From the sequence record SRR20825006_2049: a stretch of DNA of 43,790 bases; one strand, 5' to 3'. Below the pieces are notes generated by a model. That model did no database searches. It was given only the letters and a program-made list of their open reading frames with translations, and was not told the origin of the DNA. The position numbers were made by a program, and so were the translations under genes. Of the stretch, positions 1 to 12,365 are shown piece after piece; position 1 is the stretch's first letter, and the number at the start of each line of letters is the position of its first letter.

Positions 1-933
1 ATCTTCTAACCATCCTTTGTATCCTTTTTCAACAGTAATAATCGGGATACGGATTGAAGCTCCACGGTCTGAAATTCCGTAAGAGAAATCGTGAATAGAA
101 GCAGTCTCATGCTGACCAGTTAAACGCTGATCGTTAAACTCACCGTATACTGCAATATGTTCAGAAGTTACAGGACGGAAAGCTTCACAGATAGTGTCGT
201 ATACTTCTTTAGAGCCAGCAGTTCTTAAAGTTGTATTTGAGAAGTTAGCGTGCATACCAGAACCGTTCCAGTCACCTTTAATTGGTTTTGGGTGGTACTC
301 AATATAGTAACCATACTCTTCAGTAAGTCTTTGTAATAAGTAACGAGCTACCCAGATTTCATCACCTGCTTTTTTAGCTCCTTTTGCAAAAAGTTGGAAT
401 TCCCACTGACCGCTAGCAACCTCTTGGTTGATACCTTCAAAGTTAAGACCAGCATCAATACATAGATCTGCGTGCTCCTCAACAAAAGCTCTACCGTGTG
501 TGTTTTTACCACCTACAGAGCAATAGTACATACCTTGAGGACCAGGATAACCACCAACAGGGAAACCTAAAGGCAGTTGTGTGTTTTTATCCATAATGAA
601 ATATTCTTGCTCAAAACCGAACCAGAAATCATCATCTTCATCATCGATTGTTGCTCTTGCGTTAGACTCGTGTGGAGTACCATCTGCATTAAGAACCTCA
701 GTCATTACTAAGTATCCATCTCTACGAGCAGGATCTGGATATATTGCAACGGGCTTCAATAAGCAATCAGAAGAGCCTCCTTCGGCTTGTTTTGTTGAAG
801 AACCATCAAAAGACCAAACAGGACAGTCTTCTAACTTCCCGCTAAAATCTTCTTCTACTTTGGTTTTACTTCTAAGATTGGCAGTAGGTGTATAACCGTC
901 CAACCAGAGATACTCTAATTTTGATTTGCCCAT
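1..933 (-). CDS. glnII: Glutamine synthetase type II (beta-grasp + catalytic domain); 3' end runs off the left edge of the window
   Basis: Not in the ORF track. Manual translation from ATG at 933 gives MGKSKLEYLWLDGYTPTANLRSKTK...WSFDGSSTKQAEGGSSDCLLKP...GFEQEYF...GINQEVASGQWEFQ...HPKPIKGDWNGSGMHANFS, which are GSII signature motifs. The frame is open to position 1. Confidence 0.93.
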   Translation of the reverse strand, partial: MGKSKLEYLWLDGYTPTANLRSKTKVEEDFSGKLEDCPVWSFDGSSTKQAEGGSSDCLLKPVAIYPDPARRDGYLVMTEVLNADGTPHESNARATIDDEDDDFWFGFEQEYFIMDKNTQLPLGFPVGGYPGPQGMYYCSVGGKNTHGRAFVEEHADLCIDAGLNFEGINQEVASGQWEFQLFAKGAKKAGDEIWVARYLLQRLTEEYGYYIEYHPKPIKGDWNGSGMHANFSNTTLRTAGSKEVYDTICEAFRPVTSEHIAVYGEFNDQRLTGQHETASIHDFSYGISDRGASIRIPIITVEKGYKGWLED

Positions 934-973
934 AATAAATTGATTTTAAATTTTTTTTGAATTAAACTAGAAA

Positions 974-981
974 CAAATATA
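974..981 (-). promoter_or_regulatory. Bacteroidota primary-sigma -7 element (TATATTTG) for the GSII gene
   Basis: Exact TAnnTTTG match on the minus strand, 40 bp upstream of the start codon. Confidence 0.65.
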
Positions 982-1001
982 ACATTTCTTTAATATCTGC
1001 A

Positions 1002-1071
1002 TCTTTAAAAAATAGGGGGTGATGCTTCTTATTAACGGAATAAATTTAATAAGCCCCCTAAAAAATAGGGG
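1002..1071. promoter_or_regulatory. Two copies of a candidate operator CCCCTA-N5-TAGGGG (perfect at 1055-1071, degenerate at 1002-1018)
   Basis: The 13-bp direct repeat TAAAAAATAGGGG occurs at 1006-1018 and 1059-1071, 53 bp apart. It is GC-rich within an AT-rich spacer and lies between two divergent -7 elements. Confidence 0.55.
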
Positions 1072-1096
1072 TGTATTATGAAATCATATATTTTTG

Positions 1097-1104
1097 TACG
1101 TTTG
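1097..1104 (+). promoter_or_regulatory. -7 element (TACGTTTG) for the GSIII gene
   Basis: Exact TAnnTTTG match 31 bp upstream of ATG 1136. Confidence 0.65.
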
Positions 1105-1135
1105 AATTCTGAATTTCATAAAAATTAGCCTTAAA

Positions 1136-3319
1136 ATGGAGACATTGCGATTTTTTGCCCTAAAAGAAAGCCTAAACAGAAAGCCGGTAACGATCCTAGA
1201 GACACAAAAGCGCTCTGAGTTATTTGGTAAACACGTTTTTGGAAAAGATGCGATGCGTCAAGTTTTATCTCAGGATGCTTTTGAGGCAGTGGAAGACGCC
1301 ATAAACACAGGGGCAAAAATAGATCGTGTAATGGCAGATAGTATTGCGGCCGGGATGAAGCAGTGGGCGTTAGAATTAGGTGCAACCCATTATACGCACT
1401 GGTTTCAGCCTTTAACCGGGGCTACGGCAGAAAAGCATGATGCGTTTTTTGAACAAACTTCAGAAGGTAGGGCTATCGAGAAATTTGAAGGTGCAAAATT
1501 AGTTCAACAAGAACCAGATGCGTCTTCTTTTCCTCACGGTGGAATTAGAAATACTTTTGAAGCGCGCGGGTATACCGCTTGGGATCCTACATCGCCGGCA
1601 TTTATTTTAGATACCACCCTTTGTATTCCTACTGTTTTTGTATCGTATACAGGAGAGGCATTAGATAACAAAACACCTTTGTTAAGAGCCCTCAACTCCA
1701 TTGATCATCACGCCACAGAGGTCGCTAAATATTTTAATAAAAGTGTCACTAAAGTCACGGCTACTTTAGGCTGGGAACAGGAATATTTTTTGATAGATTC
1801 AGCACTGGCAGCTTCTCGCCCCGATATCATGCAAACCGGGAGAGCCTTGCTTGGTCACGCTCCGGCTAAAGGGCAACAATTAGATGACCACTATTTTGGG
1901 TCTATTCCGGTACGTGCACTTAATTTTATGAAAGAACTCGAGCAGCAATGTATGCTTTTAGGAATCCCTGTTAAAACACGGCATAATGAGGTCGCACCAA
2001 ACCAATTTGAGTTGGCTCCAATTTTTGAGGAAGCCAACCTTGCGGTAGATCATAATTCGCTTATAATGGATTTGATGGATCGTGTTGCTAGCCGCCATAA
2101 TTTAAAAGTGCTCTTTCACGAAAAACCGTTCGCCGGAATAAACGGGAGCGGAAAACATAATAACTGGTCTCTGGCAACAGATACCGGAGTCAACTTGTTA
2201 AGTCCAGGTACGACTCCGATGAAAAATTTACAGTTTCTTACCTTTTTTATAAATACTATTAAAGCAGTTCAGGAAAACGAAGCATTGCTTAGAGCGTCTG
2301 TGGCTTCGGCTTCTAATGATCACAGATTGGGTGCCAATGAGGCACCACCCGCGATTATGTCGGTATTCATAGGAAAACAGTTAACCGCTGTTCTTGACGA
2401 ATTAGAAAAAGTAACAGATGGAAAACTCTCTCCACAGGAAAAAACAGATCTAAAGCTCAATGTGGTAGGTAAAATTCCTGAAATTTTGTTGGACAATACA
2501 GATAGGAACAGGACATCACCTTTTGCGTTCACCGGAAACAAATTTGAGTTTAGAGCCGTAGGTTCCACCACAAACTGCGCAAGACCCATGGTTGTTTTAA
2601 ATACGATCGTAGCCAAACAGCTTAAAGATTTTAAAGCAGAAGTAGATAAGCTAATAGATAAGGAGAGCATGAAAAAAGATGATGCGATCTTTAATGTACT
2701 GCGCGAGTATATAAAGTCTTCTAAAAAAATAAGGTTTGAAGGTGATGGCTATAGTGCAGAATGGGAAAAGGAGGCCAAGAAGCGAAAACTGAGTAATAAT
2801 AGAACTACTCCCGAAGCTTTAAAAGTTCAAATAGGAAAGCAAGTTTCAAGCCTATTTGAAGAAATGGAAGTGATGAATAACGTTGAGCTTAAAGCGCGTT
2901 ATGATATTGAATTAGAAGAATACATTAAAAGAATTCAGATTGAAAGTAGAGTTCTAGGCGCCATTGCCGGCAATCATATAATTCCCACAGCGATACGCTA
3001 TCAAAATCTATTGATCAAAAATGTAAATGGCCTAAAGAATATCTACGAAGCCGACTATCAAGAGTTGGCTCAAGAACAACTAGAGCTTATTCAGAAAATA
3101 TCGAAATATATTAGTACGATCAATAAAGAAATAAGTTTTATGATCGAAGCAAGAAAAGAGGCTAATGCACTAGATACTAAAGAAAGAGCAGAGGTATACC
3201 AGACTAAAGTATTACCATTTTTTGACTCTATACGGTATGCTTCAGATAAACTCGAACTTATGGTTGAAGATAAATTATGGCCTTTGGCTAAAAACCGTGA
3301 ACTGCTTAATTTAAATTAA
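1136..3319 (+). CDS. glnA: Glutamine synthetase type III
   Basis: 727 aa with GSIII motifs THWFQPLTG..AEKHD, QEPDASSFP.GG.R.TFEARGYT.WD, GWEQEYFL, HNEVAP.QFE, HEKPF.G.NGSGKH.NWS and DRNRTSPFAFTGNKFEFRA. Confidence 0.96.
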   Translation: METLRFFALKESLNRKPVTILETQKRSELFGKHVFGKDAMRQVLSQDAFEAVEDAINTGAKIDRVMADSIAAGMKQWALELGATHYTHWFQPLTGATAEKHDAFFEQTSEGRAIEKFEGAKLVQQEPDASSFPHGGIRNTFEARGYTAWDPTSPAFILDTTLCIPTVFVSYTGEALDNKTPLLRALNSIDHHATEVAKYFNKSVTKVTATLGWEQEYFLIDSALAASRPDIMQTGRALLGHAPAKGQQLDDHYFGSIPVRALNFMKELEQQCMLLGIPVKTRHNEVAPNQFELAPIFEEANLAVDHNSLIMDLMDRVASRHNLKVLFHEKPFAGINGSGKHNNWSLATDTGVNLLSPGTTPMKNLQFLTFFINTIKAVQENEALLRASVASASNDHRLGANEAPPAIMSVFIGKQLTAVLDELEKVTDGKLSPQEKTDLKLNVVGKIPEILLDNTDRNRTSPFAFTGNKFEFRAVGSTTNCARPMVVLNTIVAKQLKDFKAEVDKLIDKESMKKDDAIFNVLREYIKSSKKIRFEGDGYSAEWEKEAKKRKLSNNRTTPEALKVQIGKQVSSLFEEMEVMNNVELKARYDIELEEYIKRIQIESRVLGAIAGNHIIPTAIRYQNLLIKNVNGLKNIYEADYQELAQEQLELIQKISKYISTINKEISFMIEARKEANALDTKERAEVYQTKVLPFFDSIRYASDKLELMVEDKLWPLAKNRELLNLN

Positions 3320-3566
3320 GTTGGTGCCAAATTTTTGGTGTATTAGGAGCCTCAGCACTATTAATACTATGTAAATTAATTGTGAATTTCTTACTTTTTT
3401 AGTAGGTTAAATCCTACAAAATATTTTAGGGTAACATAAAGGGTGTTTTTCCCTTCTCGTATTTTAGAGTAGGCAGGCTCTACGATTTTTATTTACAACG
3501 TTTTCGTTATGCGTGAATTTCATCGAAAAGTTACAATCTTCTTAAAATCTGAGCTTTAGATTTTTA

Positions 3567-3721: not shown

Positions 3722-5245
3722 ATGAAAAAAGTTATGTTAAGCGCAGCAGCGCTAATGTTTGGGGCAGTAGCATTTGCACAAACCAGCACTCAGGCTTCAG
3801 AAGCCGATCTAAGTGATACGCCAATTATAGGGGGTATCATTGATTACTCAAATATTACCACAGCAGATAAGCTTCCAGCAGCGGCAGCTACAGCAAACCG
3901 TGGGTATACTGAGCAAAATGCAACAATGCCAGGGGCTATGAATGATATTAAGGCCCGTCAAGAAGGTGAGAAAAACTCAATTGTAGGGTATCAAACCGGT
4001 GCGGGCAATAAGGTATCTATGTCTCAGATGGGCGATGTAAATGGTAATGCGGCTGATAGTGGCGAATCTAATCTTATTTATTCTACACAAATAGGTCAGA
4101 ACAATGATGGGCGACTTGAGCAACAAGGTGATTTTAATGAGGTTATCTTAGATCAGAATAACGATAATCCTTTTGCGGCCGGGGGTACCGTAGGTAATAA
4201 AGCGGATATTCAGCAGGGAACAGCTAATCAAGCAGAGAAAAATTATGCAGCCGTTCAACAATACGGAGATGATAACTCCACTAAAATCTTACAAACTTAT
4301 GACAATAGTGATGCTCTAGTAATACAAGGAGGTGTTGGTAATATGGTTGAGATCAATCAATATGCTGACCCGGAAAATAGTAAAGGTCACGAGGCACTAG
4401 TTGAACAGTATGGTGATGATAATCAGGCGTTGATCAATCAAAACGCTGATGGAATGAAAGGTCGTAATTACGCTAGAGTTTTCTCTTATGGTAATAATAA
4501 CAAATCAGAGCAAACTCAAACTACTGATAGTGATACCAAAGGAAACGTAGCTTTAGTGAACCAAGGTGTTGATACCGGAAGTTCAGCCGCTCTTTTTAAT
4601 ACTGCAGAATACGCTGTAGTAACATCAGTTGGTGAAGTTATGAACGGTACTCCTAATACACAATCAGATTATAGTGAAGCTATTCAAACCCAGTCTGGTC
4701 ACGATAACGTAGCGGAGTCTCATCAATTTGGTGCAGGTACTAGCACTACTAATGGAGATTATTCTAATCAAACTCAAGATGGTAAAGGTAATGAAGCTTA
4801 TGCGTTTCAAAATGCTTACGGAAGCGCTAGTGGTCGAGGTAATTCTTTACAATCAACACAAACTGGTGACGACAACTACGTAGCTACAGGACAAAATGGT
4901 AGAAATCAAGATGCTACTATTTCTCAAACAGGAGATGATAACTATGCAGTTGCTACACAAAGAGGACGTGGTCATGTGGTAGATATTATGCAAAATGGAG
5001 ATATGAACGCTGCTGAAACTGCTCAGTACGGGGTTGGAAACTCAATTGTTATAAGCCAAGACGGTGGACACAGTTGGAAGGCAGAGCAAGATGTACCAGG
5101 AGCTGCACCTAATGGAGGGAATTCTCTAGATGTTATTCAAGTTGGTCCTAGTACTATTCTTAACAGCGGACTTCAGACTCCTGCGGCTGTTACTAGAGTA
5201 GGTCTTACTGCACCTGCAATGGCTCGTGCATCGGGTTCACTTTAA
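3722..5245 (+). CDS. csgA: Major curlin subunit (CsgA-like), about 15 curlin repeats
   Basis: Sec signal peptide ending AFA|Q. About 30 N/S-x5-Q strands form curlin repeats, for example NSLQSTQTGDDNYVATGQ and QDATISQTGDDNYAVATQ. The protein is Gln/Asn/Gly-rich and lies upstream of csgEFG homologues. Confidence 0.88.
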   Translation: MKKVMLSAAALMFGAVAFAQTSTQASEADLSDTPIIGGIIDYSNITTADKLPAAAATANRGYTEQNATMPGAMNDIKARQEGEKNSIVGYQTGAGNKVSMSQMGDVNGNAADSGESNLIYSTQIGQNNDGRLEQQGDFNEVILDQNNDNPFAAGGTVGNKADIQQGTANQAEKNYAAVQQYGDDNSTKILQTYDNSDALVIQGGVGNMVEINQYADPENSKGHEALVEQYGDDNQALINQNADGMKGRNYARVFSYGNNNKSEQTQTTDSDTKGNVALVNQGVDTGSSAALFNTAEYAVVTSVGEVMNGTPNTQSDYSEAIQTQSGHDNVAESHQFGAGTSTTNGDYSNQTQDGKGNEAYAFQNAYGSASGRGNSLQSTQTGDDNYVATGQNGRNQDATISQTGDDNYAVATQRGRGHVVDIMQNGDMNAAETAQYGVGNSIVISQDGGHSWKAEQDVPGAAPNGGNSLDVIQVGPSTILNSGLQTPAAVTRVGLTAPAMARASGSL

Positions 5246-5354: not shown

Positions 5355-5897
5355 ATGAAACCAAAATTCTTTTTTACGGCAATATTGATTCTTCTTATGA
5401 CAACTGCATATGCTCAAACGTATAAAAATGAAACTAATAGTGATGATCAAAAACAATTAGTAGAAAAAGAACTGGTGTCTGCTCAAATATTAACCAATTT
5501 AGGTGTTGGAACTGCTCAAAACGATCGCAATGCAACTCTTAGAGGCAATAGTGTAGTGTTGAGTCAGATTGGCGATTACAATACAGCCGCGATAAATGTA
5601 GTTGCTCAGGCCAGTGAAATCAACATAAATCAAGTAGGAGATCAAAACTATGTAGGCTTAGATTATAAGGTTAAAACAGCTATTTCAGAAATTCTTCAAG
5701 AAGGTAATCGAAATACGGTTTATGACATTGTTAATAATCGTGATGCAGATATTTCGCTAGATATACAACAACAAGGAAATGATTTAAACTTTCAAAGACT
5801 CGGAGTAAATAAACTCACCGAGTCCTTACAATTTAAGCAAACTGAAGCATCACCGGTATTGATTATACGTAGTGATTCTTTTGGGTTTGTAAACTAG
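5355..5897 (+). CDS. csgB: Minor curlin / nucleator (CsgB-like)
   Basis: Signal peptide ending AYA|Q. About 4 degenerate curlin repeats (QIGDYN, QVGDQN, QEGNRN, QQGNDL). Located between csgA and csgE. Confidence 0.72.
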   Translation: MKPKFFFTAILILLMTTAYAQTYKNETNSDDQKQLVEKELVSAQILTNLGVGTAQNDRNATLRGNSVVLSQIGDYNTAAINVVAQASEININQVGDQNYVGLDYKVKTAISEILQEGNRNTVYDIVNNRDADISLDIQQQGNDLNFQRLGVNKLTESLQFKQTEASPVLIIRSDSFGFVN

Positions 5898-5902
5898 AAA
5901 AT

Positions 5903-6697
5903 GTGCTAATTAAACCTATTGTAAAATTGAAAATTATAAGTGTTTATAGTGTTCTTCTTTTTTTTTCATTGGTTAAAACACACGCGCAATTCTATAATAA
6001 AGAGGTCGCAGCGTCTATAAGAATAGAGCGAAATAGTGAGTTTTTAAAGTTTTTTGCATTGGCAGAAAATAAATCTCCTGTAGACCGTACCCTAGAATAT
6101 GATTTTTTAATTTTTAAAACTCAAGCTGACGGCACAGTTTCAAAAGATAATGATAAACAAAGGTTCGTATTAAGTGCGTACGAAAAAAAGGAGCTTCAAA
6201 ACTTAGTTTTATCTAATGCCGTCACTAACAAAACAATTATCGTTTTATTAATCTATGATCAAGACGGTAAACCTATAGGTAAAGATAGGATCGAGTTAGA
6301 ACAAGGTAGTCTATCGAATTTAGACAATTTAAAGGGAAATCTCATCGCCATTTCTTCAGATCAAATAGATCAAGCTGCTCCACAAGATGGTTTTAAACTA
6401 CAAGGTCTGGTAATACAAAAGTCAATCACAAAAGCGGGCAGAGATTTTTACAAATACTTTTATTCCCTTTTCTACAATAAAGATATAAAGTCTTCCAAGA
6501 ATATTAGAATTCTTGAGGTTCCGGGTAGATCAAGAACTACTCGCATCTCGGTTAAAATAGATGATTTTGTCGTTTGGCAATTTTTTGCCCAACCTCAGCG
6601 CAAATATCTTGAACAGCACGCAAGCATCGCAATTAGTAAGGTTGTAGAGCGATTGCAGATTTTAGAACAACAGAAGGATAAGTTTATACACTATTAA
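5903..6697 (+). CDS. csgE: CsgE-family curli assembly protein with an extra N-terminal CsgH-like beta-sandwich domain
   Basis: The C-terminal GLVIQKSITKAGRDFYKYF...IRILEVP...ISVKIDDFVVWQFFAQP aligns by eye with E. coli CsgE GLLTDHTVSSIGHDFYRAF...LTINERP...ITITVNQDVIFQTFLFP. An extra domain of about 110 aa follows the signal peptide. The GTG start is uncertain. Confidence 0.8.
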   Translation: MLIKPIVKLKIISVYSVLLFFSLVKTHAQFYNKEVAASIRIERNSEFLKFFALAENKSPVDRTLEYDFLIFKTQADGTVSKDNDKQRFVLSAYEKKELQNLVLSNAVTNKTIIVLLIYDQDGKPIGKDRIELEQGSLSNLDNLKGNLIAISSDQIDQAAPQDGFKLQGLVIQKSITKAGRDFYKYFYSLFYNKDIKSSKNIRILEVPGRSRTTRISVKIDDFVVWQFFAQPQRKYLEQHASIAISKVVERLQILEQQKDKFIHY

Positions 6698-6698
6698 T

Positions 6699-7109
6699 AT
6701 GAAAACAATTACTTTTTTAATTCTATTATTTGGAGGAATAACCTTCATGCACGCCCAGCAATTTACTTACAAACCGCTTAACCCGGCTTTTGGAGGGGAC
6801 ACCTTTAATTACAATTGGTTATTGAGTTCGGCTACTGTACAAAATGGTTTAAAAGAAGGTTTGAGTGCTGAAGATCAAAAGTCAGAATTAGAACAATTTG
6901 GTGATAATTTGAATAAACAAGTTTTAAGTCAGATTTCAAGAACACTACTTCAGCAACAAATAGAAGGAATTGGTGATTTTACCGAAGAAGGCACATTTAC
7001 CTATGGAACGCTGGCCGTTGAAGTTTTTGAGAGTGAAGAAGGGTTAGTGATCAATATTCTAGACACTTCTACAGGTGAGCAAACTCAAGTTATAGTCCCA
7101 AATCAATAA
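6699..7109 (+). CDS. csgF: Curli assembly protein CsgF
   Basis: The mature N-terminus QQFTYKPLNPAFGGDTFNYNWLLSSATVQN matches the CsgF pattern NPxFGGxxxNxxxLLxSAxxQN. Confidence 0.93.
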   Translation: MKTITFLILLFGGITFMHAQQFTYKPLNPAFGGDTFNYNWLLSSATVQNGLKEGLSAEDQKSELEQFGDNLNKQVLSQISRTLLQQQIEGIGDFTEEGTFTYGTLAVEVFESEEGLVINILDTSTGEQTQVIVPNQ

Positions 7110-7115
7110 ATCAAG

Positions 7116-8552
7116 ATGAAATTTTACAAAGTCATTACAGCGGTATTTTTAATTACCGCTTTAAATTCTTGCGGAACTTATTTCAACCAACCTTTTGACC
7201 AAACCCCGGCACGTTTAGGGGAATACTCTAAGTCTACTCAAAACCTATTAAACTTACCACCGGCCCAAGCTCCTGTGGAAGTGGCAGTTTATAATTTTTC
7301 AGATCAAACAGGGCAATACAAAGCGGTTGAGAATGGTAGTACATTTAGTACTGCGGTAACTCAAGGCTCTACGGCAATCTTACTAAAGGCACTTGAAGAT
7401 AGTGGTTGGTTTATTCCTATAGAGCGAGAAAACCTAAGTAACCTTTCAACAGAGCGCAATATCATTAGAAACACAAAGCAAGAGTATATAAAAAACTTAA
7501 ACCCCAATGAGCCACCGCTTCCACCACTTAAATATGCCGGTATTTTATTAGAGGGTGGCATTGTGTCGTATGATACTAATATAATTACCGGAGGTGTTGG
7601 TGCGCGTTATTTTGGACTTGGAGGTTCGGCAAAGTATAGGCAAGACCGTATCACGGTCTATTTAAGAATGGTCTCTACCAGTAATGGTGAAATATTAAAA
7701 ACGGTTTATGTTTCTAAAACCATCTTGTCACAAGCGCTAGATGCTAGTTTGTTTCGCTTTGTAAAGTTTCAACGCTTATTAGAAACTGAGATGGGAATCA
7801 CTCGCAATGAACCCGTTCAACTTGCAGTAAAAGACGCTGTTGAGAAAGCTGTTCATGATTTAATTATAGAAGGAATAGCAGATGGATATTGGTCTGCCAA
7901 AGGCGGAAATGCTGTTAATGAAGAATTAGTAACCGCCTACAATGCAGACAAAGAAGTTGCCGAAAGTACTGGATTGTATAATCGTATATTTTTTAAGCAG
8001 CAGTATACTAATGCCTTGAACTTCTCTTTAGGTACTACGATGCTTGATGCAGATTATAGTGCTAAGCGTTTTGGGGCTATGATTAAGGCAGGATATACAA
8101 AAGCATTGAGTCAAAGTTTCAGTCTAAATTTTAATGCAGCGTATTTAAATTTTAAAACGGGAGATACCTATGATCAAAATTTTGCAAGCGTTGATTTGAA
8201 TGCCGAATTCAAACTTTTAAAAAATGATAAGTTATCTCCTTATTTATTTGCCGGAGGTGGAGTTCTATTGGGCTTTTCTGAAAATGAAGAATCATTAGGT
8301 CTAGATGCTGGTCAAACCGATGCAAAAGTTCAATATGGTGCAGGTCTTGAGTATGCTCTATCTTCTAAAATTGGGCTCAAATTATGGGCAGAACATAATG
8401 TTACTTTCACCGATAAGGTAGATAACCTTATAAATGGTAAAAGAGATGATCATTACTTGAATTTGGGTGTTGGATTAAAATACTACTTCGATTTTGCTAA
8501 AAAGGCAACAATTCAAACTTCAACTGATGCAACTAACCCTGTTAATAATTAG
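7116..8552 (+). CDS. csgG: Curli secretion channel lipoprotein CsgG fused to a C-terminal outer-membrane beta-barrel domain
   Basis: Lipobox LNSC. CsgG motifs VAVYNFSDQTGQYK, FSTAVTQG, ALEDSGWF.PIER.NL.NL..ER.IIR and GG.GARYFG.G are present. Residues from about 299 onward show amphipathic beta-strands ending LGVGLKYYF. Confidence 0.93.
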   Translation: MKFYKVITAVFLITALNSCGTYFNQPFDQTPARLGEYSKSTQNLLNLPPAQAPVEVAVYNFSDQTGQYKAVENGSTFSTAVTQGSTAILLKALEDSGWFIPIERENLSNLSTERNIIRNTKQEYIKNLNPNEPPLPPLKYAGILLEGGIVSYDTNIITGGVGARYFGLGGSAKYRQDRITVYLRMVSTSNGEILKTVYVSKTILSQALDASLFRFVKFQRLLETEMGITRNEPVQLAVKDAVEKAVHDLIIEGIADGYWSAKGGNAVNEELVTAYNADKEVAESTGLYNRIFFKQQYTNALNFSLGTTMLDADYSAKRFGAMIKAGYTKALSQSFSLNFNAAYLNFKTGDTYDQNFASVDLNAEFKLLKNDKLSPYLFAGGGVLLGFSENEESLGLDAGQTDAKVQYGAGLEYALSSKIGLKLWAEHNVTFTDKVDNLINGKRDDHYLNLGVGLKYYFDFAKKATIQTSTDATNPVNN

Positions 8553-8556
8553 AACA

Positions 8557-10083
8557 ATGAAAATTAATTGTATTTACTTTTTAATTCTAACAGTAGGTCT
8601 AATGCTTTCTTGTAGCGAAGATACTATTGAAGAAAATGGTATAGGTTCGCTTGACGGCACTGTGGTTGATGCTGTTTCAAAAACGCCCTTAGCTAATGTG
8701 AAAATAGTTACGAATCCTTCATCAAGCACAGTGTTTACAGATGGTGATGGTAATTTTGTGATTGAAGCAGTAAAAACAGGAGAGTATTCTGTTCAAGCAG
8801 AGTTAGAAGGCTATACAGATGCTTTTGAAGCGGTGACCATTTTAAGTGAACAACGCAGCAGTGTAAGTTTTGAATTGGTTGTAGGTGGAGATGAAAACAG
8901 AGCTCCTAAAGTTCCCGAGTTACTTTCACCAGAAAATGGAGCTTCTGACTTAGAGGCAAAGGTCGAATTTGTTTGGTCATCATCTGCTAATGATACTGAT
9001 GAAATTGTGTATACCTTACAACTTAGAAATGGAACTACAAATGAAATCCAGAATATAGAAGTTGTTGCTGATACTATGGCAACCGTAGAAAAGTTAAGGT
9101 ATGGAAGCAATTATTTTTGGCAAGTAACTGCATCTGATGGAGAAAATGAACCTGTACAAAGCGTTTTAGGACAATTTAGTACAACTACAACGCCTGAAAA
9201 TGATTTTCTATATGTAAGATCTATTAATGGGAATAGCGTGATTTTTTCAGGAGGTAACGATGAAGATGCTGATGATGAAAATACCGGAGAGATTAATTTT
9301 AATGAGTTTCAACTTACCTCAGAGACCTATAATAGCTTTAAGCCGCGACGTAATGTAGAAACCTCCAAAATCGCGTTTTTAAGAACTGTCGATGGAGCAA
9401 CACAACTGCACACCATGAATTTAGATGGTTCAGACATAAAGCAGGTGACTAATGCTATTCCTTTAAATGGATTTCGAGTAAGTGAACTCAATTATACTTG
9501 GGCACAAAACGGTGGGAAACTCTACTATCCTAGCTTTGACAAGCTTTATAGTATTAATCCTGACGGTGGTGGTCTTTCCTTAATCTACCAAACTCCTGAC
9601 GGAAGTTTTATTTCAGAAGTGAGTGCGGCTGCATTTGACGACAATTTAATCGCCTTGAAGACCAATGATAGCAACGGCTATAACGTAAGTGTATATACGG
9701 TGCGTTTATCATCAGGAACAATAGAGCAAATGGTTTACCAAAACACTCCGGGTGCTGTAATAGGTATTGACTTAGACGCAAACGGAAGCAGGCTTGTCTA
9801 TGCCAAGGATACTTCTGGCTCAGAAAACACGCAATATCGTCAATTTTCTAGCAGGATCTACATATATAACCTCAATACAAATTCTGAAGCGATTTTAAAT
9901 AATGGAGTAACCGAAGGATTGAATGATCTGCAACCTAGTTGGTCGCCTTCGGAGGGAGAAATCATTTTTACTAGAAAACCGAGTAATCTAAATTCAGAAC
10001 CTGAGATTTACATTTCATCTCTAAATAATTTCTCAAATGACGACCTTCTCTTCACTAACGCATCAATGCCAGATTGGGAATAG
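8557..10083 (+). CDS. Curli-operon lipoprotein: carboxypeptidase-regulatory-like domain + Fn3-like domain + TolB/PD40-like beta-propeller
   Basis: The likely start is ATG 8557, 4 bp after the csgG stop, rather than TTG 8494. Lipobox MLSC is followed by acidic SEDTIEE. Domain motifs are G.V.D..SKTPLANV...TD.DGNF, P.LLSPENGA...YFWQV.ASDG and PSWSPSEGEIIF. Confidence 0.75.
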   Translation: MKINCIYFLILTVGLMLSCSEDTIEENGIGSLDGTVVDAVSKTPLANVKIVTNPSSSTVFTDGDGNFVIEAVKTGEYSVQAELEGYTDAFEAVTILSEQRSSVSFELVVGGDENRAPKVPELLSPENGASDLEAKVEFVWSSSANDTDEIVYTLQLRNGTTNEIQNIEVVADTMATVEKLRYGSNYFWQVTASDGENEPVQSVLGQFSTTTTPENDFLYVRSINGNSVIFSGGNDEDADDENTGEINFNEFQLTSETYNSFKPRRNVETSKIAFLRTVDGATQLHTMNLDGSDIKQVTNAIPLNGFRVSELNYTWAQNGGKLYYPSFDKLYSINPDGGGLSLIYQTPDGSFISEVSAAAFDDNLIALKTNDSNGYNVSVYTVRLSSGTIEQMVYQNTPGAVIGIDLDANGSRLVYAKDTSGSENTQYRQFSSRIYIYNLNTNSEAILNNGVTEGLNDLQPSWSPSEGEIIFTRKPSNLNSEPEIYISSLNNFSNDDLLFTNASMPDWE

Positions 10084-10100: not shown

Positions 10101-10136
10101 TAAAAACGTCCTGAAATATCAGGACGTTTTTATTTC
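10101..10136 (+). terminator. Intrinsic terminator ending the curli operon
   Basis: Perfect inverted repeat TAAAAACGTCCTGA-AATA-TCAGGACGTTTTTA with a U tract. Confidence 0.85.
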
Positions 10137-10162: not shown

Positions 10163-11341
10163 ATGAGTCAAGAGATTTCTAAACGCTACGCTCAGCGTGG
10201 TGTTTCCGCCGGAAAGGAAGAAGTGCATAAAGCCATTAAAAATGTCGATAAAGGATTATTTCCTAAAGCATTTTGCAAAATAGTCCCTGATTATCTGACC
10301 GGTAGTGAAGAGCATTGTTTAATTATGCACGCTGATGGTGCCGGGACCAAATCTTCGCTCGCTTATATGTATTGGAAGGAAACCGGCGATCTTTCCGTTT
10401 GGAAAGGCATTGCTCAGGATGCGTTAATTATGAATATCGACGATCTTCTGTGCGTGGGCGCTACCGATAATATTTTGCTTTCGTCAACGATTGGTCGAAA
10501 CAAAAACCTGATCACCGGCGAAGTCATTTCTGCAATTATAAATGGTACCGAAGAATTGATAGCTGACCTTGAAAAACACGATGTTTCTATCAAAAGTACC
10601 GGTGGGGAAACCGCAGATGTTGGTGATCTCGTGCGCACTATAATCGTAGATTCTACGGTGACGGCGAGAATGAAGAAAGAAGATGTTATTGATAATGCAA
10701 ATATTAAACAGGGTGACGTTATCGTAGGTCTGGCTAGTTTTGGTCAATCTACTTATGAAACCGAGTACAATGGCGGTATGGGAAGTAATGGTCTTACTTC
10801 TGCACGTCACGATGTTTTTGACAACTATTTAGCCGAAAAATTCCCTGAGAGTTTTGATAAAGCTGTACCGGAAGATTTGGTATATAGTGGCTCAAAGAAG
10901 CTTACAGATTCCGTTGAAGCGAGTCCGTTGGACGCCGGAAAATTAATGTTATCTCCAACACGAACTTATGCGCCTGTGATCAAAAAGATTTTAGCTTCCG
11001 TAGATAAAAGTTTACTACACGGGATGGTGCATTGCAGTGGTGGAGCGCAGACTAAAATTTTACATTTTGTTGAAAATCTGCACATTATTAAAGACAATCT
11101 ATTTGAGGTTCCGCCACTATTCAAACTTATTCAAGAAGAAAGCGGTACTGATTGGAAAGAGATGTATCAGGTTTTCAATATGGGACATAGAATGGAATTG
11201 TATGTAGATCCAAGTCTGGCTCAGGATATTATTGAGATCTCTAAATCTTTCAATATAGATGCTCAGATCGTTGGGCGCGTTGAGGCTTCAAATGAGAAGT
11301 CACTAACAATTAAATCGCCCTTTGGTACGTTTGAATATTAA
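10163..11341 (+). CDS. purM: Phosphoribosylformylglycinamidine cyclo-ligase (AIR synthase), Bacteroidota type
   Basis: Motifs RY..RGVSA.KEEVH, HADGAGTKS, MNIDDLLCVGA, GGETAD, G.GSNGLTSARH, HCSGG and FNMGHRME. Confidence 0.92.
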   Translation: MSQEISKRYAQRGVSAGKEEVHKAIKNVDKGLFPKAFCKIVPDYLTGSEEHCLIMHADGAGTKSSLAYMYWKETGDLSVWKGIAQDALIMNIDDLLCVGATDNILLSSTIGRNKNLITGEVISAIINGTEELIADLEKHDVSIKSTGGETADVGDLVRTIIVDSTVTARMKKEDVIDNANIKQGDVIVGLASFGQSTYETEYNGGMGSNGLTSARHDVFDNYLAEKFPESFDKAVPEDLVYSGSKKLTDSVEASPLDAGKLMLSPTRTYAPVIKKILASVDKSLLHGMVHCSGGAQTKILHFVENLHIIKDNLFEVPPLFKLIQEESGTDWKEMYQVFNMGHRMELYVDPSLAQDIIEISKSFNIDAQIVGRVEASNEKSLTIKSPFGTFEY

Positions 11342-11366: not shown

Positions 11367-12365
11367 TTGAAAAGACTTGTATACTTCACTCTATGCTGCG
11401 TCATCCTTTTGACAGGTAAAACTGTTCATGCGCAGCACGTCGCTTTTCCGCTTCCTATTAAAAAGAATTTAGTAAAACGATTAACTGAACAATTAGCTCC
11501 AAAACCGGAGACCAATTGGCAAGAATTGAATCGTGTGGGAATTGATTTAAGTGAAGTTGCTTTTGTGAATTGGAATGCCGGTGGTAGTAATTCCATTTCA
11601 GGTCTTGCTGAAGTGGTTCTAGAACGTAATTATTCTGATAAAAAGCGCAAATGGCGTAATAAACTTATTACGCGCTATGGTGTAAACAGTCAGGAAGGGC
11701 AGGAGTTACGCAAAACGGATGATAATTTAGAGCTTACCTCAGATTTTGGATACCGTCGCGATACCTTATCTAACTGGTACTATTCAGCTAAATTTAGATT
11801 TGCTTCTCAATTTACAAACGGATATAAATATCCTGATACCAGCACGCCAATTTCTCAGTTCATGGCTCCGGGCTACATCTTTTTAGGGGTAGGTGGTGAG
11901 TATGGGCAACGTTTGGATAATTTATCTATATACGCTTCTCCATTAACCTATAAATCAACTTTTGTACTTGATCAGGACCTGGCTAACAATGGTGCTTTTG
12001 GTGTTGAACCCGCGGTGCGCGATGCTGATGGAAATATTATTAGGGAAGGCTCAAACGTCAATAGCGAATTGGGGATTTTGATACAAAGTTCTTTAAATGC
12101 TCAAGTAATGGAGAATATAAACCTGACCAATCTGGTCAATCTTTATACTGATTATCTAAAAAGCTTCGGGAATGTTGATATAGACTGGGAACTCAACTTG
12201 AATTTTAAAGTGAATAGTTTTGTGCTGGCTAAAGTGGGATCACATTTAAAATACGATAATGACGTAAAAATTACCGAAACCAACGTTGATGGTGAAGAAG
12301 TGGTAATGGGAGCCAGAACTCAGTGGAAACAACAACTGGGGATTGGCGTTGTTGTAGATTTTTAA
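11367..12365 (+). CDS. DUF3078 family outer-membrane beta-barrel protein
   Basis: Signal peptide, the motifs NWNAGG.NSIS, RKTDD, QF..GY.YP...S.FMAPGY and FGNVDIDWE, and a C-terminal Phe. TTG start. Confidence 0.8.
   Translation: MKRLVYFTLCCVILLTGKTVHAQHVAFPLPIKKNLVKRLTEQLAPKPETNWQELNRVGIDLSEVAFVNWNAGGSNSISGLAEVVLERNYSDKKRKWRNKLITRYGVNSQEGQELRKTDDNLELTSDFGYRRDTLSNWYYSAKFRFASQFTNGYKYPDTSTPISQFMAPGYIFLGVGGEYGQRLDNLSIYASPLTYKSTFVLDQDLANNGAFGVEPAVRDADGNIIREGSNVNSELGILIQSSLNAQVMENINLTNLVNLYTDYLKSFGNVDIDWELNLNFKVNSFVLAKVGSHLKYDNDVKITETNVDGEEVVMGARTQWKQQLGIGVVVDF

Follow-up and report, generated by a model that had tools for sequence, protein, structure and literature searches.

Nearly all that is known about curli biogenesis comes from Enterobacteria, in which CsgG, CsgE and CsgF make up the outer-membrane machine. 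The stretch of 43,790 nucleotides from sequence record SRR20825006_2049 that was analyzed here (the window) contains a curli (csg) operon of a marine flavobacterium, in which csgG is followed by a gene encoding a lipoprotein of 508 amino acids (aa), which we named LP. We wanted to know whether LP is a part of the curli machinery that has so far gone unrecognised, as proposed in an original prediction made from the sequence alone. LP is a good candidate for such a part, as it travels with csgG sequence in all the related genomes examined. We estimate the probability at about 60% that LP is a lineage-specific, surface-exposed accessory lipoprotein of the Flavobacteriaceae curli (type VIII) secretion-assembly machinery.

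LP is the last gene of a csg operon

The TAG stop codon of csgG ends at position 8552 and the ATG start codon of LP is located at position 8557, leaving a gap of 4 nt (AACA) that contains no terminator. The LP gene (8557..10083, plus strand) is an open reading frame (ORF) of 508 aa whose translation is free of stops. An alternative in-frame TTG codon at position 8494 would add 21 residues to LP; we favor the ATG at 8557 because the signal peptide and the lipobox fit this start. An intrinsic terminator (10101..10132, plus strand), composed of a 14-pair stem followed by a T-run, is present 18 nt past the stop codon of LP and closes the operon. It is the sole strong terminator-like site on the plus strand from csgA to purM; two further terminator-like sites are located upstream of csgA, at 3402-3455. 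The original prediction that LP starts 4 bp past csgG and precedes the operon terminator is therefore borne out, and LP is the final cistron in the transcription unit csgA(n)-csgB-csgE-csgF-csgG::barrel-LP.

In the window, LP is the sixth gene of this operon and is uncharacterised. The five genes that precede it are also located on the plus strand. The first one encodes a csgA-like major curlin of 507 aa (3722..5245), which matches Pfam family Curlin_rpt in three stretches (E 1.5e-22) and for which the NCBIfam CsgA and CsgB matches are both below the cut-off. It is followed by a gene for a csgB-like minor curlin of 180 aa (5355..5897) showing a weak match to Curlin_rpt (18.9 bits versus a cut-off of 20.7). 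The csgE gene (5903..6697) encodes a protein of 264 aa having a long N-terminal extension; Pfam CsgE is matched by residues 166-257 (E 1.2e-15). The N-terminal 160 residues or so of this CsgE start in a signal-peptide-like manner and match no family, and the CsgE ORFs of related loci are similar in length. CsgF (6699..7109, 136 aa) matches Pfam CsgF almost entirely (E 1.3e-31, profile positions 6-132 of 132).

The fifth gene, csgG (7116..8552), encodes a protein of 478 aa that is a fusion of a CsgG domain (residues 50-261) and a barrel (strands in residues 299-458). Pfam recognises both parts, CsgG with an E-value of 2.3e-64 and OMP_b-brl, at residues 303-458, with an E-value of 3.6e-8. The AlphaFold2 (AF2) model contains eight long strands in the region 299-458, where the per-residue confidence score (pLDDT) is mostly 80-96. 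In Foldseek searches, the N-terminal part matched CsgG of E. coli (4uv2; E 3.5e-17, about 42% identity), and the C-terminal part matched 8-stranded barrels, i.e., the transmembrane domain of OmpA, NspA (TM-score of 0.83 normalised to the target), Ail and OmpX. Therefore, each CsgG protomer is predicted to carry its own small outer-membrane barrel. A search with the barrel domain gave 15 matches, all of which are CsgG fusions of 438-479 aa, including proteins of Gillisia and Myroides; for 13 of the 15, a precomputed OMP_b-brl match is available.

LP is kept together with csgG::barrel

To place LP in its genomic context, we used the best 80 of 428 confirmed stretches from a genome scan (40-74% identity), one per species-level genome (labels of the type L0xx refer to these loci). 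All ORFs of the 80 loci were searched with the proteins of the window using phmmer (E 1e-5). The loci contain 82 copies of LP, 79 of which are informative, meaning that at least 1.5 kb of upstream sequence is available. Seventy-six of these copies are located directly behind an intact csgG::barrel ORF, and hence the fusion is intact in 76 of the 79 related modules. One more copy (L038) is located behind a frame-disrupted fusion, which brings the total to 77, and the last two (L078 and L080) are located behind a barrel-only deletion remnant of csgG::barrel. The co-occurrence with csgG::barrel that would be expected of the predicted curli component was thus found for 77 of the 79 copies, and with a remnant for the other two. 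Homologues located mostly away from csg genes would have argued against the prediction; in this sample, all 79 informative copies directly follow csgG sequence.

The other csg genes are commonly present as well. For 76 modules, 4.5 kb or more of upstream sequence is available; in these, csgF was detected in 74, csgE in 73, csgB (at the equivalent position) in 70 and csgA in 66, using a single-sequence search that may have missed divergent curlins. The number of tandem csgA-like genes upstream of csgB, each encoding about 280-650 aa, ranges from none detected to five per genome (see, for instance, L006, L008, L010, L015, L020, L028 and L044), so that the curlin copy number is highly plastic and csgB-E-F-G-LP is fixed.

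We then analyzed the junctions on both sides of LP. For 60 csgG-LP junctions, the distance between the csgG stop codon and the LP start codon ranges from -23 to +98 nt, with 23 overlaps and 54 junctions of 24 nt or less; these values are approximate, as the LP start was taken to be the first ATG located 12-32 codons ahead of the lipobox Cys. A terminator-like hairpin is present within 100 nt past LP for 71 of the 80 copies, as compared to 42 of 410 random 100-nt windows taken within LP coding sequence. In the window, the operon is followed on its 3' side by a purM-like gene (10163-11341) and a DUF3078 gene (11367-12365). Seventy-six LP copies have at least 1.5 kb of downstream sequence, and purM is located within 300 bp in 62 of them. 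The other 14 comprise ten copies followed by an insertion of 3.6-5.5 kb, two (L036 and L039) without purM within 10 kb, and two that are the first copies of tandem modules. Hence, the LP-purM junction has been disrupted in 12 loci and the csgG-LP junction in none. The insertions between LP and purM are present in loci of the Dokdonia type, namely L007, L008-L010, L015, L017, L018, L020, L026 and L030; the one of L007 (11653-16853) contains three minus-strand genes, one of which encodes 1117 aa with repeats that look ankyrin-like by eye.

Two genomes contain duplicated modules. L075 has two tandem csgE-F-G-LP modules whose proteins are mutual best matches, and LP (84% identity) is the best conserved of the four, followed by CsgG (76%), CsgF (73%) and CsgE (58%). 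For the two modules of L050, the identities are 65% for LP, 68% for CsgG and 71% for CsgF. The different stability of the two junctions and the co-duplication are evidence beyond conserved synteny, and show that LP and csgG::barrel are inherited and duplicated together and remain neighbors.

At the protein level, a search with LP gave 826 matches. The best 120 of these are 46-99% identical to LP, are mostly about 500 aa long and belong to Flavobacteriaceae, with Leeuwenhoekiella, Dokdonia, Aequorivita, Lacinutrix and Croceiramulus among the genera; in public databases, LP homologues are named "carboxypeptidase regulatory-like domain-containing protein" or "Tol biopolymer transport system component" and nothing else. 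A search of the ESM Atlas gave clusters of the LP family alone (Bacteroidota, 484-504 aa). With at least 80 orthologues of uniform length, LP is a real gene. The top match (99% identity) is labelled Leeuwenhoekiella palythoae by NCBI, whereas the syntenic LP of L. palythoae DSM 19859 (10001-11458 of L059) shares 51% identity with LP of the window. Either the name L. palythoae spans diverse genomes, or the window originates from another Leeuwenhoekiella lineage.

Several observations weigh against a dedicated role of LP in curli assembly. The adjacency sample is limited to the best 80 of the 428 matches. All 80 loci are Flavobacteriaceae-like, and the wider region from the type III glutamine synthetase gene (GSIII) to purM is also syntenic; therefore, vertical inheritance explains part of the csgG-LP adjacency, and adjacency alone is weak evidence. 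(In the window, GSIII is located at 1136-3319 on the plus strand and precedes the csg block. Together with a type I-like glutamine synthetase gene on the minus strand (1-933), it forms a divergent pair within 1-3319, directly upstream of the csg operon, that is syntenic in many related loci.) Furthermore, the region from GSIII to the middle of csgG is deleted in L078, which lacks csgA, csgB, csgE, csgF and the CsgG domain, and LP is nevertheless present as an intact ORF of 496 aa that has retained its lipobox, a CSEDPINE tail and a C-terminal MPDWQ. The locus of L049, a complete chromosome assembled from a metagenome, lacks csgA and csgB as well as the N-terminal half of csgE (7749-8185), and has an intact csgF, csgG::barrel and LP. 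These loci leave room for a function of LP that does not strictly need curlin subunits. Finally, a Rosetta-stone search did not identify any fusion of LP to a Csg protein, which is weak evidence, and gave two distant PD40 multidomain proteins alone (26-27% identity).

With respect to the deletion, L080 is 100% identical to L078 except for an upstream shift of about 57 bp. Therefore, the two loci represent one event and yield no dN/dS. The presumably useless barrel fragment is still an open frame, which suggests that the deletion may be recent. This barrel ORF (9366-9980), located directly after GSIII, encodes 204 aa from a GTG start codon. We considered whether L078 might have kept a free-standing barrel and LP as a pair without curli, and rejected this because the ORF lacks a signal peptide and starts inside the linker, as expected for a deletion remnant.

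The intact LP genes of L078/L080 and L049 would fit with LP being a surface lipoprotein that has a function of its own, such as the binding of peptides, polymers or surfaces, and that shares the csg promoter for surface-attached growth without contacting the curli machinery. The lack of an LP-Csg fusion and of a match to any Csg family agrees with this explanation. So does the generic nature of its CarboxypepD_reg, Fn3 and PD40 propeller domains, a set shared by thousands of unrelated surface proteins. In a profile search of 1.84 billion representatives, 46,593 library proteins matched at E<=0.001, and many of these are giant repeat proteins. Among the best 150 of that search, 74 are full-length representatives of 480-530 aa at 50% clustering, and those checked were covered end to end; most of the others are giant repeat proteins whose matches are confined to Fn3 or CarboxypepD_reg repeats. 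Against this explanation, LP is never found outside the csgG context among the 79 informative copies, its start overlaps the csgG stop in 23 of the 60 junctions, it has been duplicated together with csgEFG in two genomes, being the best conserved protein of the L075 pair, and it has repeatedly been separated from its downstream neighbor and never from csgG. We consider an independent function unlikely, though worth keeping in mind.

Domains and predicted surface exposure of LP

An alignment of 34 sequences, 47-74% identical to LP of the window and about 490-525 aa long, contains 64 invariant columns and was used as input for an AF2 model (mean pLDDT 83.6). The model consists of a signal helix (residues 2-17), two beta-sandwiches (29-107 and 122-209) and about 23 strands in the region 217-506. 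The helix corresponds to a type II signal peptide (8557..8613, plus strand), in which residues 1-18 (MKINCIYFLILTVGLMLS) precede the lipobox Cys (GLMLS-C19; codon TGT at 8611-8613). C19 is invariant in the 34 aligned sequences, and a lipobox is present in all 80 complete orthologue N-termini.

The first beta-sandwich (8641..8877, plus strand; residues 29-107) is a CarboxypepD_reg or transthyretin-like domain, supported by PF13620, which residues 32-107 match with 47.6 bits (Pfam gathering threshold, 32.3) and which was found in all 34 homologues. The Pfam scan of LP revealed nothing above threshold outside this domain. PF26549 is precomputed on many LP homologues and gave no match in the Pfam copy scanned here. 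The second sandwich (8917..9186, plus strand; residues 121-210) is Fn3-like: the fn3 match is below threshold in LP itself (E 0.087) and reaches E<=0.01 in 21 of the 34 homologues, and a profile search against PDB sequences identified Fn3 domains with E-values of 0.001-0.008. All matches of the latter search were generic (NOMO, Fn3, titin and a carboxypeptidase A entry).

The remainder of LP (9199..10080, plus strand; residues 215-508) forms a TolB-like beta-propeller in the model. The best PDB matches found by Foldseek are TolB structures (4r40, 4pwz, 1crz and 2hqs; E 5.6e-13 to 1.4e-11), with TM-scores normalised to the target of 0.54-0.56 and sequence identities of 14-18%; receptor ectodomains that combine Fn3 domains and propellers, as well as tricorn protease (1k32), were ranked lower. 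Sequence profiles recognise the propeller weakly: TIGR02800 (TolB) matches with 34.3 bits versus a cut-off of 343.15, over profile positions 305-417 alone, Dpp5 of NCBIfam matches with 32 bits versus a cut-off of 900, and PD40 and DPPIV_N were found in 5 and 4 of the 34 homologues, respectively. The propeller ends in a M-P-D-W-E/K/Q motif that is near-invariant in the orthologues (MPDWE in the window, 10069-10080; residues 504-507 plus E508), with W507 present in all 34 sequences. As the model has a strand at 503-506, this motif may close the propeller in the manner of a "velcro" strand; alternatively, it may serve as a recognition tag.

The CarboxypepD_reg-like, Fn3-like and TolB-like segments of the original prediction are thus all three supported by Pfam, AF2 or Foldseek. 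Its statement that no canonical Csg protein has such an architecture also holds, as scans of Pfam and NCBIfam did not reveal a match of LP to any Csg family, even at E<=10.

The lipobox Cys is followed by S-E-D-T-I-E-E (8614..8634, plus strand), a predicted lipoprotein export signal for the cell surface that has four acidic residues in positions +2 to +8. In the 34-sequence alignment, S20 and E21 are (nearly) invariant. Of the 80 complete orthologue N-termini, 58 have S at position +2, 18 have N, 3 have T and 1 has D; E is found at position +3 in 79 and D in 1, and D or E at position +4 in 77, so that the motif C-[SNTD]-[ED]-[DE] is present in 77. At least two acidic residues in positions +2 to +7 were found in 79 of these 80 N-termini, and in the wider family at least two are present in 70 of 72 lipobox-bearing representatives. 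The CsgG proteins encoded by the same loci served as an internal control, because CsgG must face the periplasm. The lipobox tail of CsgG in the window (C19-GTYFNQ) contains no acidic residues, and the tails of the 76 CsgG proteins analyzed, which read C-G-A-Y-F-N-Q or a close variant, do not contain a single charged residue.

In Capnocytophaga, according to the portions of PMC5080379 used here, a polar or positively charged residue and two acidic ones just after Cys+1 suffice to direct a periplasmic lipoprotein to the surface, and the consensus sequences SDDDD of B. fragilis and SDDFE of F. johnsoniae are both functional when transplanted. The LP sequence S-E-D-T-I-E-E fits this published Bacteroidota signal. 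The original prediction had described acidic residues behind the lipobox Cys and had taken them for a Bacteroidota surface-export signal; the former are conserved in 79 of the 80 orthologues and the latter agrees with PMC5080379, as far as that source was covered. LP is probably surface-exposed, a well-founded prediction from a conserved motif that has been defined experimentally.

An alternative is that LP faces the periplasm, where, as a TolB-like or CsgC-like factor, it would handle unfolded curlins or tie the CsgG complex to the envelope, compensating for the absence of csgC and csgH from Bacteroidota. Its best structural matches are indeed periplasmic TolB proteins, the export-signal rule is statistical, and we take its Ig-like (immunoglobulin-like) sandwiches to be reminiscent of CsgC. 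Moreover, according to a survey of csg operons across phyla, Bacteroidetes lack csgC and csgD, and csgH is an extra gene of Alphaproteobacteria (PMC3521004). Against a periplasmic location, the conserved S/N-E-D tail fits a signal that is sufficient for surface export (PMC5080379, in the part consulted), and the acidic tail is under selection, being present with at least two acidic residues in 79 of 80 LP sequences and in none of 76 CsgG proteins. In addition, LP lacks the N-terminal domain of TolB and scores 34 bits with TIGR02800, far from the 343 required. A periplasm-facing LP therefore seems to us quite improbable.

It is very improbable that LP is a functionless remnant of an S9/DPP-IV or tricorn-like peptidase that lost its catalytic domain: the weak Dpp5 match, DPPIV_N in 4 of the 34 homologues, tricorn 1k32 among the Foldseek matches and one Atlas cluster auto-named "Peptidase family S9-like" point in that direction, but the length is uniform, 64 columns are invariant, 74 full-length representatives of 480-530 aa exist at 50% clustering, the C-terminal MPDWE is conserved, and a hydrolase domain is absent from every member seen, the Pfam and NCBIfam scans having revealed no peptidase or hydrolase catalytic domain after the propeller, with which LP ends at residue 508.

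A possible role at the curli pore

CsgE, CsgF and CsgG are all present and canonical in the operon, so that LP adds to the known machine instead of replacing one of its parts. Under the reading that we favor, in which LP is a surface-exposed accessory of the curli machinery, LP would be exported by Sec and lipidated at Cys19, after which the S-E-D tail would direct it to the outer leaflet, on the cell surface, while the non-acidic lipobox tail of CsgG would keep CsgG facing the periplasm. The two Ig-like sandwiches might then act as a stalk that holds the TolB-like propeller above the membrane, beside the secretion pore, and LP would dock at the extracellular face of the 8-stranded barrels fused to CsgG. 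By analogy, these barrels would be the most economical partner, because Bacteroidota surface lipoproteins typically dock on barrels. A face of the propeller may bind a disordered segment of the emerging curli subunit, or of CsgF or CsgB, like TolB binds TolB-box peptides, and through such binding, subunits would be held back or organised where they leave the pore. Both the docking on the fused barrel and the binding of unfolded subunits are steps that we infer. Prediction of a complex between the CsgG barrel (residues 270-478) and mature LP (19-508) gave scores of 0.20 and 0.01 versus a mark of 0.34, in a prediction that drew on neither the alignments supplied nor folded controls and that is no evidence either way on binding.

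Several known pairs of a surface lipoprotein and a barrel resemble this arrangement. Like SusD with SusC, BtuG with BtuB and BamH with BamG, LP has a lipobox and an acidic export signal, and its gene is located beside one encoding a beta-barrel. BamH, a surface lipoprotein in the BAM complex of F. johnsoniae, has the BamG barrel as its anchor (PMC12611786, in the part covered), and BtuG forms complexes with the BtuB barrel (PMC10404256, likewise in part). However, the barrel beside LP differs in being 8-stranded, OmpA/NspA-like and joined to CsgG; it is not a TonB-dependent transporter, nor is it FadL-like. Nor did LP show a common fold with SusD, BtuG or BamH among the top Foldseek matches, which were TolB and eukaryotic receptor propellers.

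The type IX secretion system (T9SS) also contains a small barrel, PorG, which is associated with the lipoprotein PorK and may tether a lipoprotein-containing machine. The fused barrel is weakly similar to it, far below the cut-off (T9SS_PorG of NCBIfam, 26.7 bits versus 130); here, T9SS genes are absent and the barrel is fused to CsgG.

LP shares with TolB of the Tol-Pal system the TolB-type beta-propeller fold. The TolB propeller binds Pal and disordered TolB-box peptides of colicins (according to the titles of PDB entries 2hqs, 2ivz and 3iax). This suggests a peptide-binding face; by analogy, LP may plausibly bind a disordered segment of a curlin or of CsgF. Unlike TolB, LP has two Ig-like domains instead of the TolB N-terminal domain, is predicted to be lipidated, and is encoded in a csg and not a tol-pal context.

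As to the Csg accessory proteins, i.e., CsgE, CsgF and CsgG of Enterobacteria and CsgH of Alphaproteobacteria, LP is likewise encoded in a csg operon, beside csgG, and is predicted to act at the outer membrane. The likeness to csgH extends to LP being a lineage-specific extra gene recognised by its position (PMC3521004). LP differs from the Csg families in that it shows no sequence relation to them, is far larger (508 aa), has three domains and is a lipoprotein with a predicted surface-export signal. The passages of PMC3521004 that were consulted do not mention an extra csg gene or a CsgG fusion in Bacteroidetes. Likewise, no description of LP or of the CsgG::barrel fusion was found in the curli and CsgG literature on Bacteroidota that was consulted in part, including a 2026 review (PMC13721041).

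A bolder version of this reading takes into account that CsgG forms a nonamer. With one LP per barrel, nine stalks and propellers would form a crown or vestibule outside the cell, above the curli pore, similar in concept to the extracellular BAM canopy of F. johnsoniae. Such a structure would serve as a chamber on the surface side in which an amyloid is captured and folded, holding unfolded CsgA near CsgF and CsgB so that fibres can nucleate in open seawater; such a crown would aid nucleation because free diffusion in seawater would otherwise defeat nucleation-precipitation. We regard this crown as a long shot.

The original prediction of a candidate curli component has thus gained operon membership, co-occurrence with csgG::barrel and a conserved surface motif, and the molecular role of LP is still one that we infer. 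For the particular roles that it offered, namely LP as an anchor, cap or nucleator of fibres or as a partner of the fused barrel, the analysis gave no evidence. The locus represents a widespread version of the curli system of marine Flavobacteriaceae that has two additions, an OmpA-like barrel on each CsgG protomer and a conserved three-domain lipoprotein that is probably surface-exposed. Should LP belong to the machine, a type VIII secretion system would for the first time have an extracellular lipoprotein subunit, and LP would provide a handle on the retention and nucleation of fibres at the cell surface. LP would moreover be a further case of the emerging theme of Bacteroidota outer-membrane machines that are decorated with surface lipoproteins.

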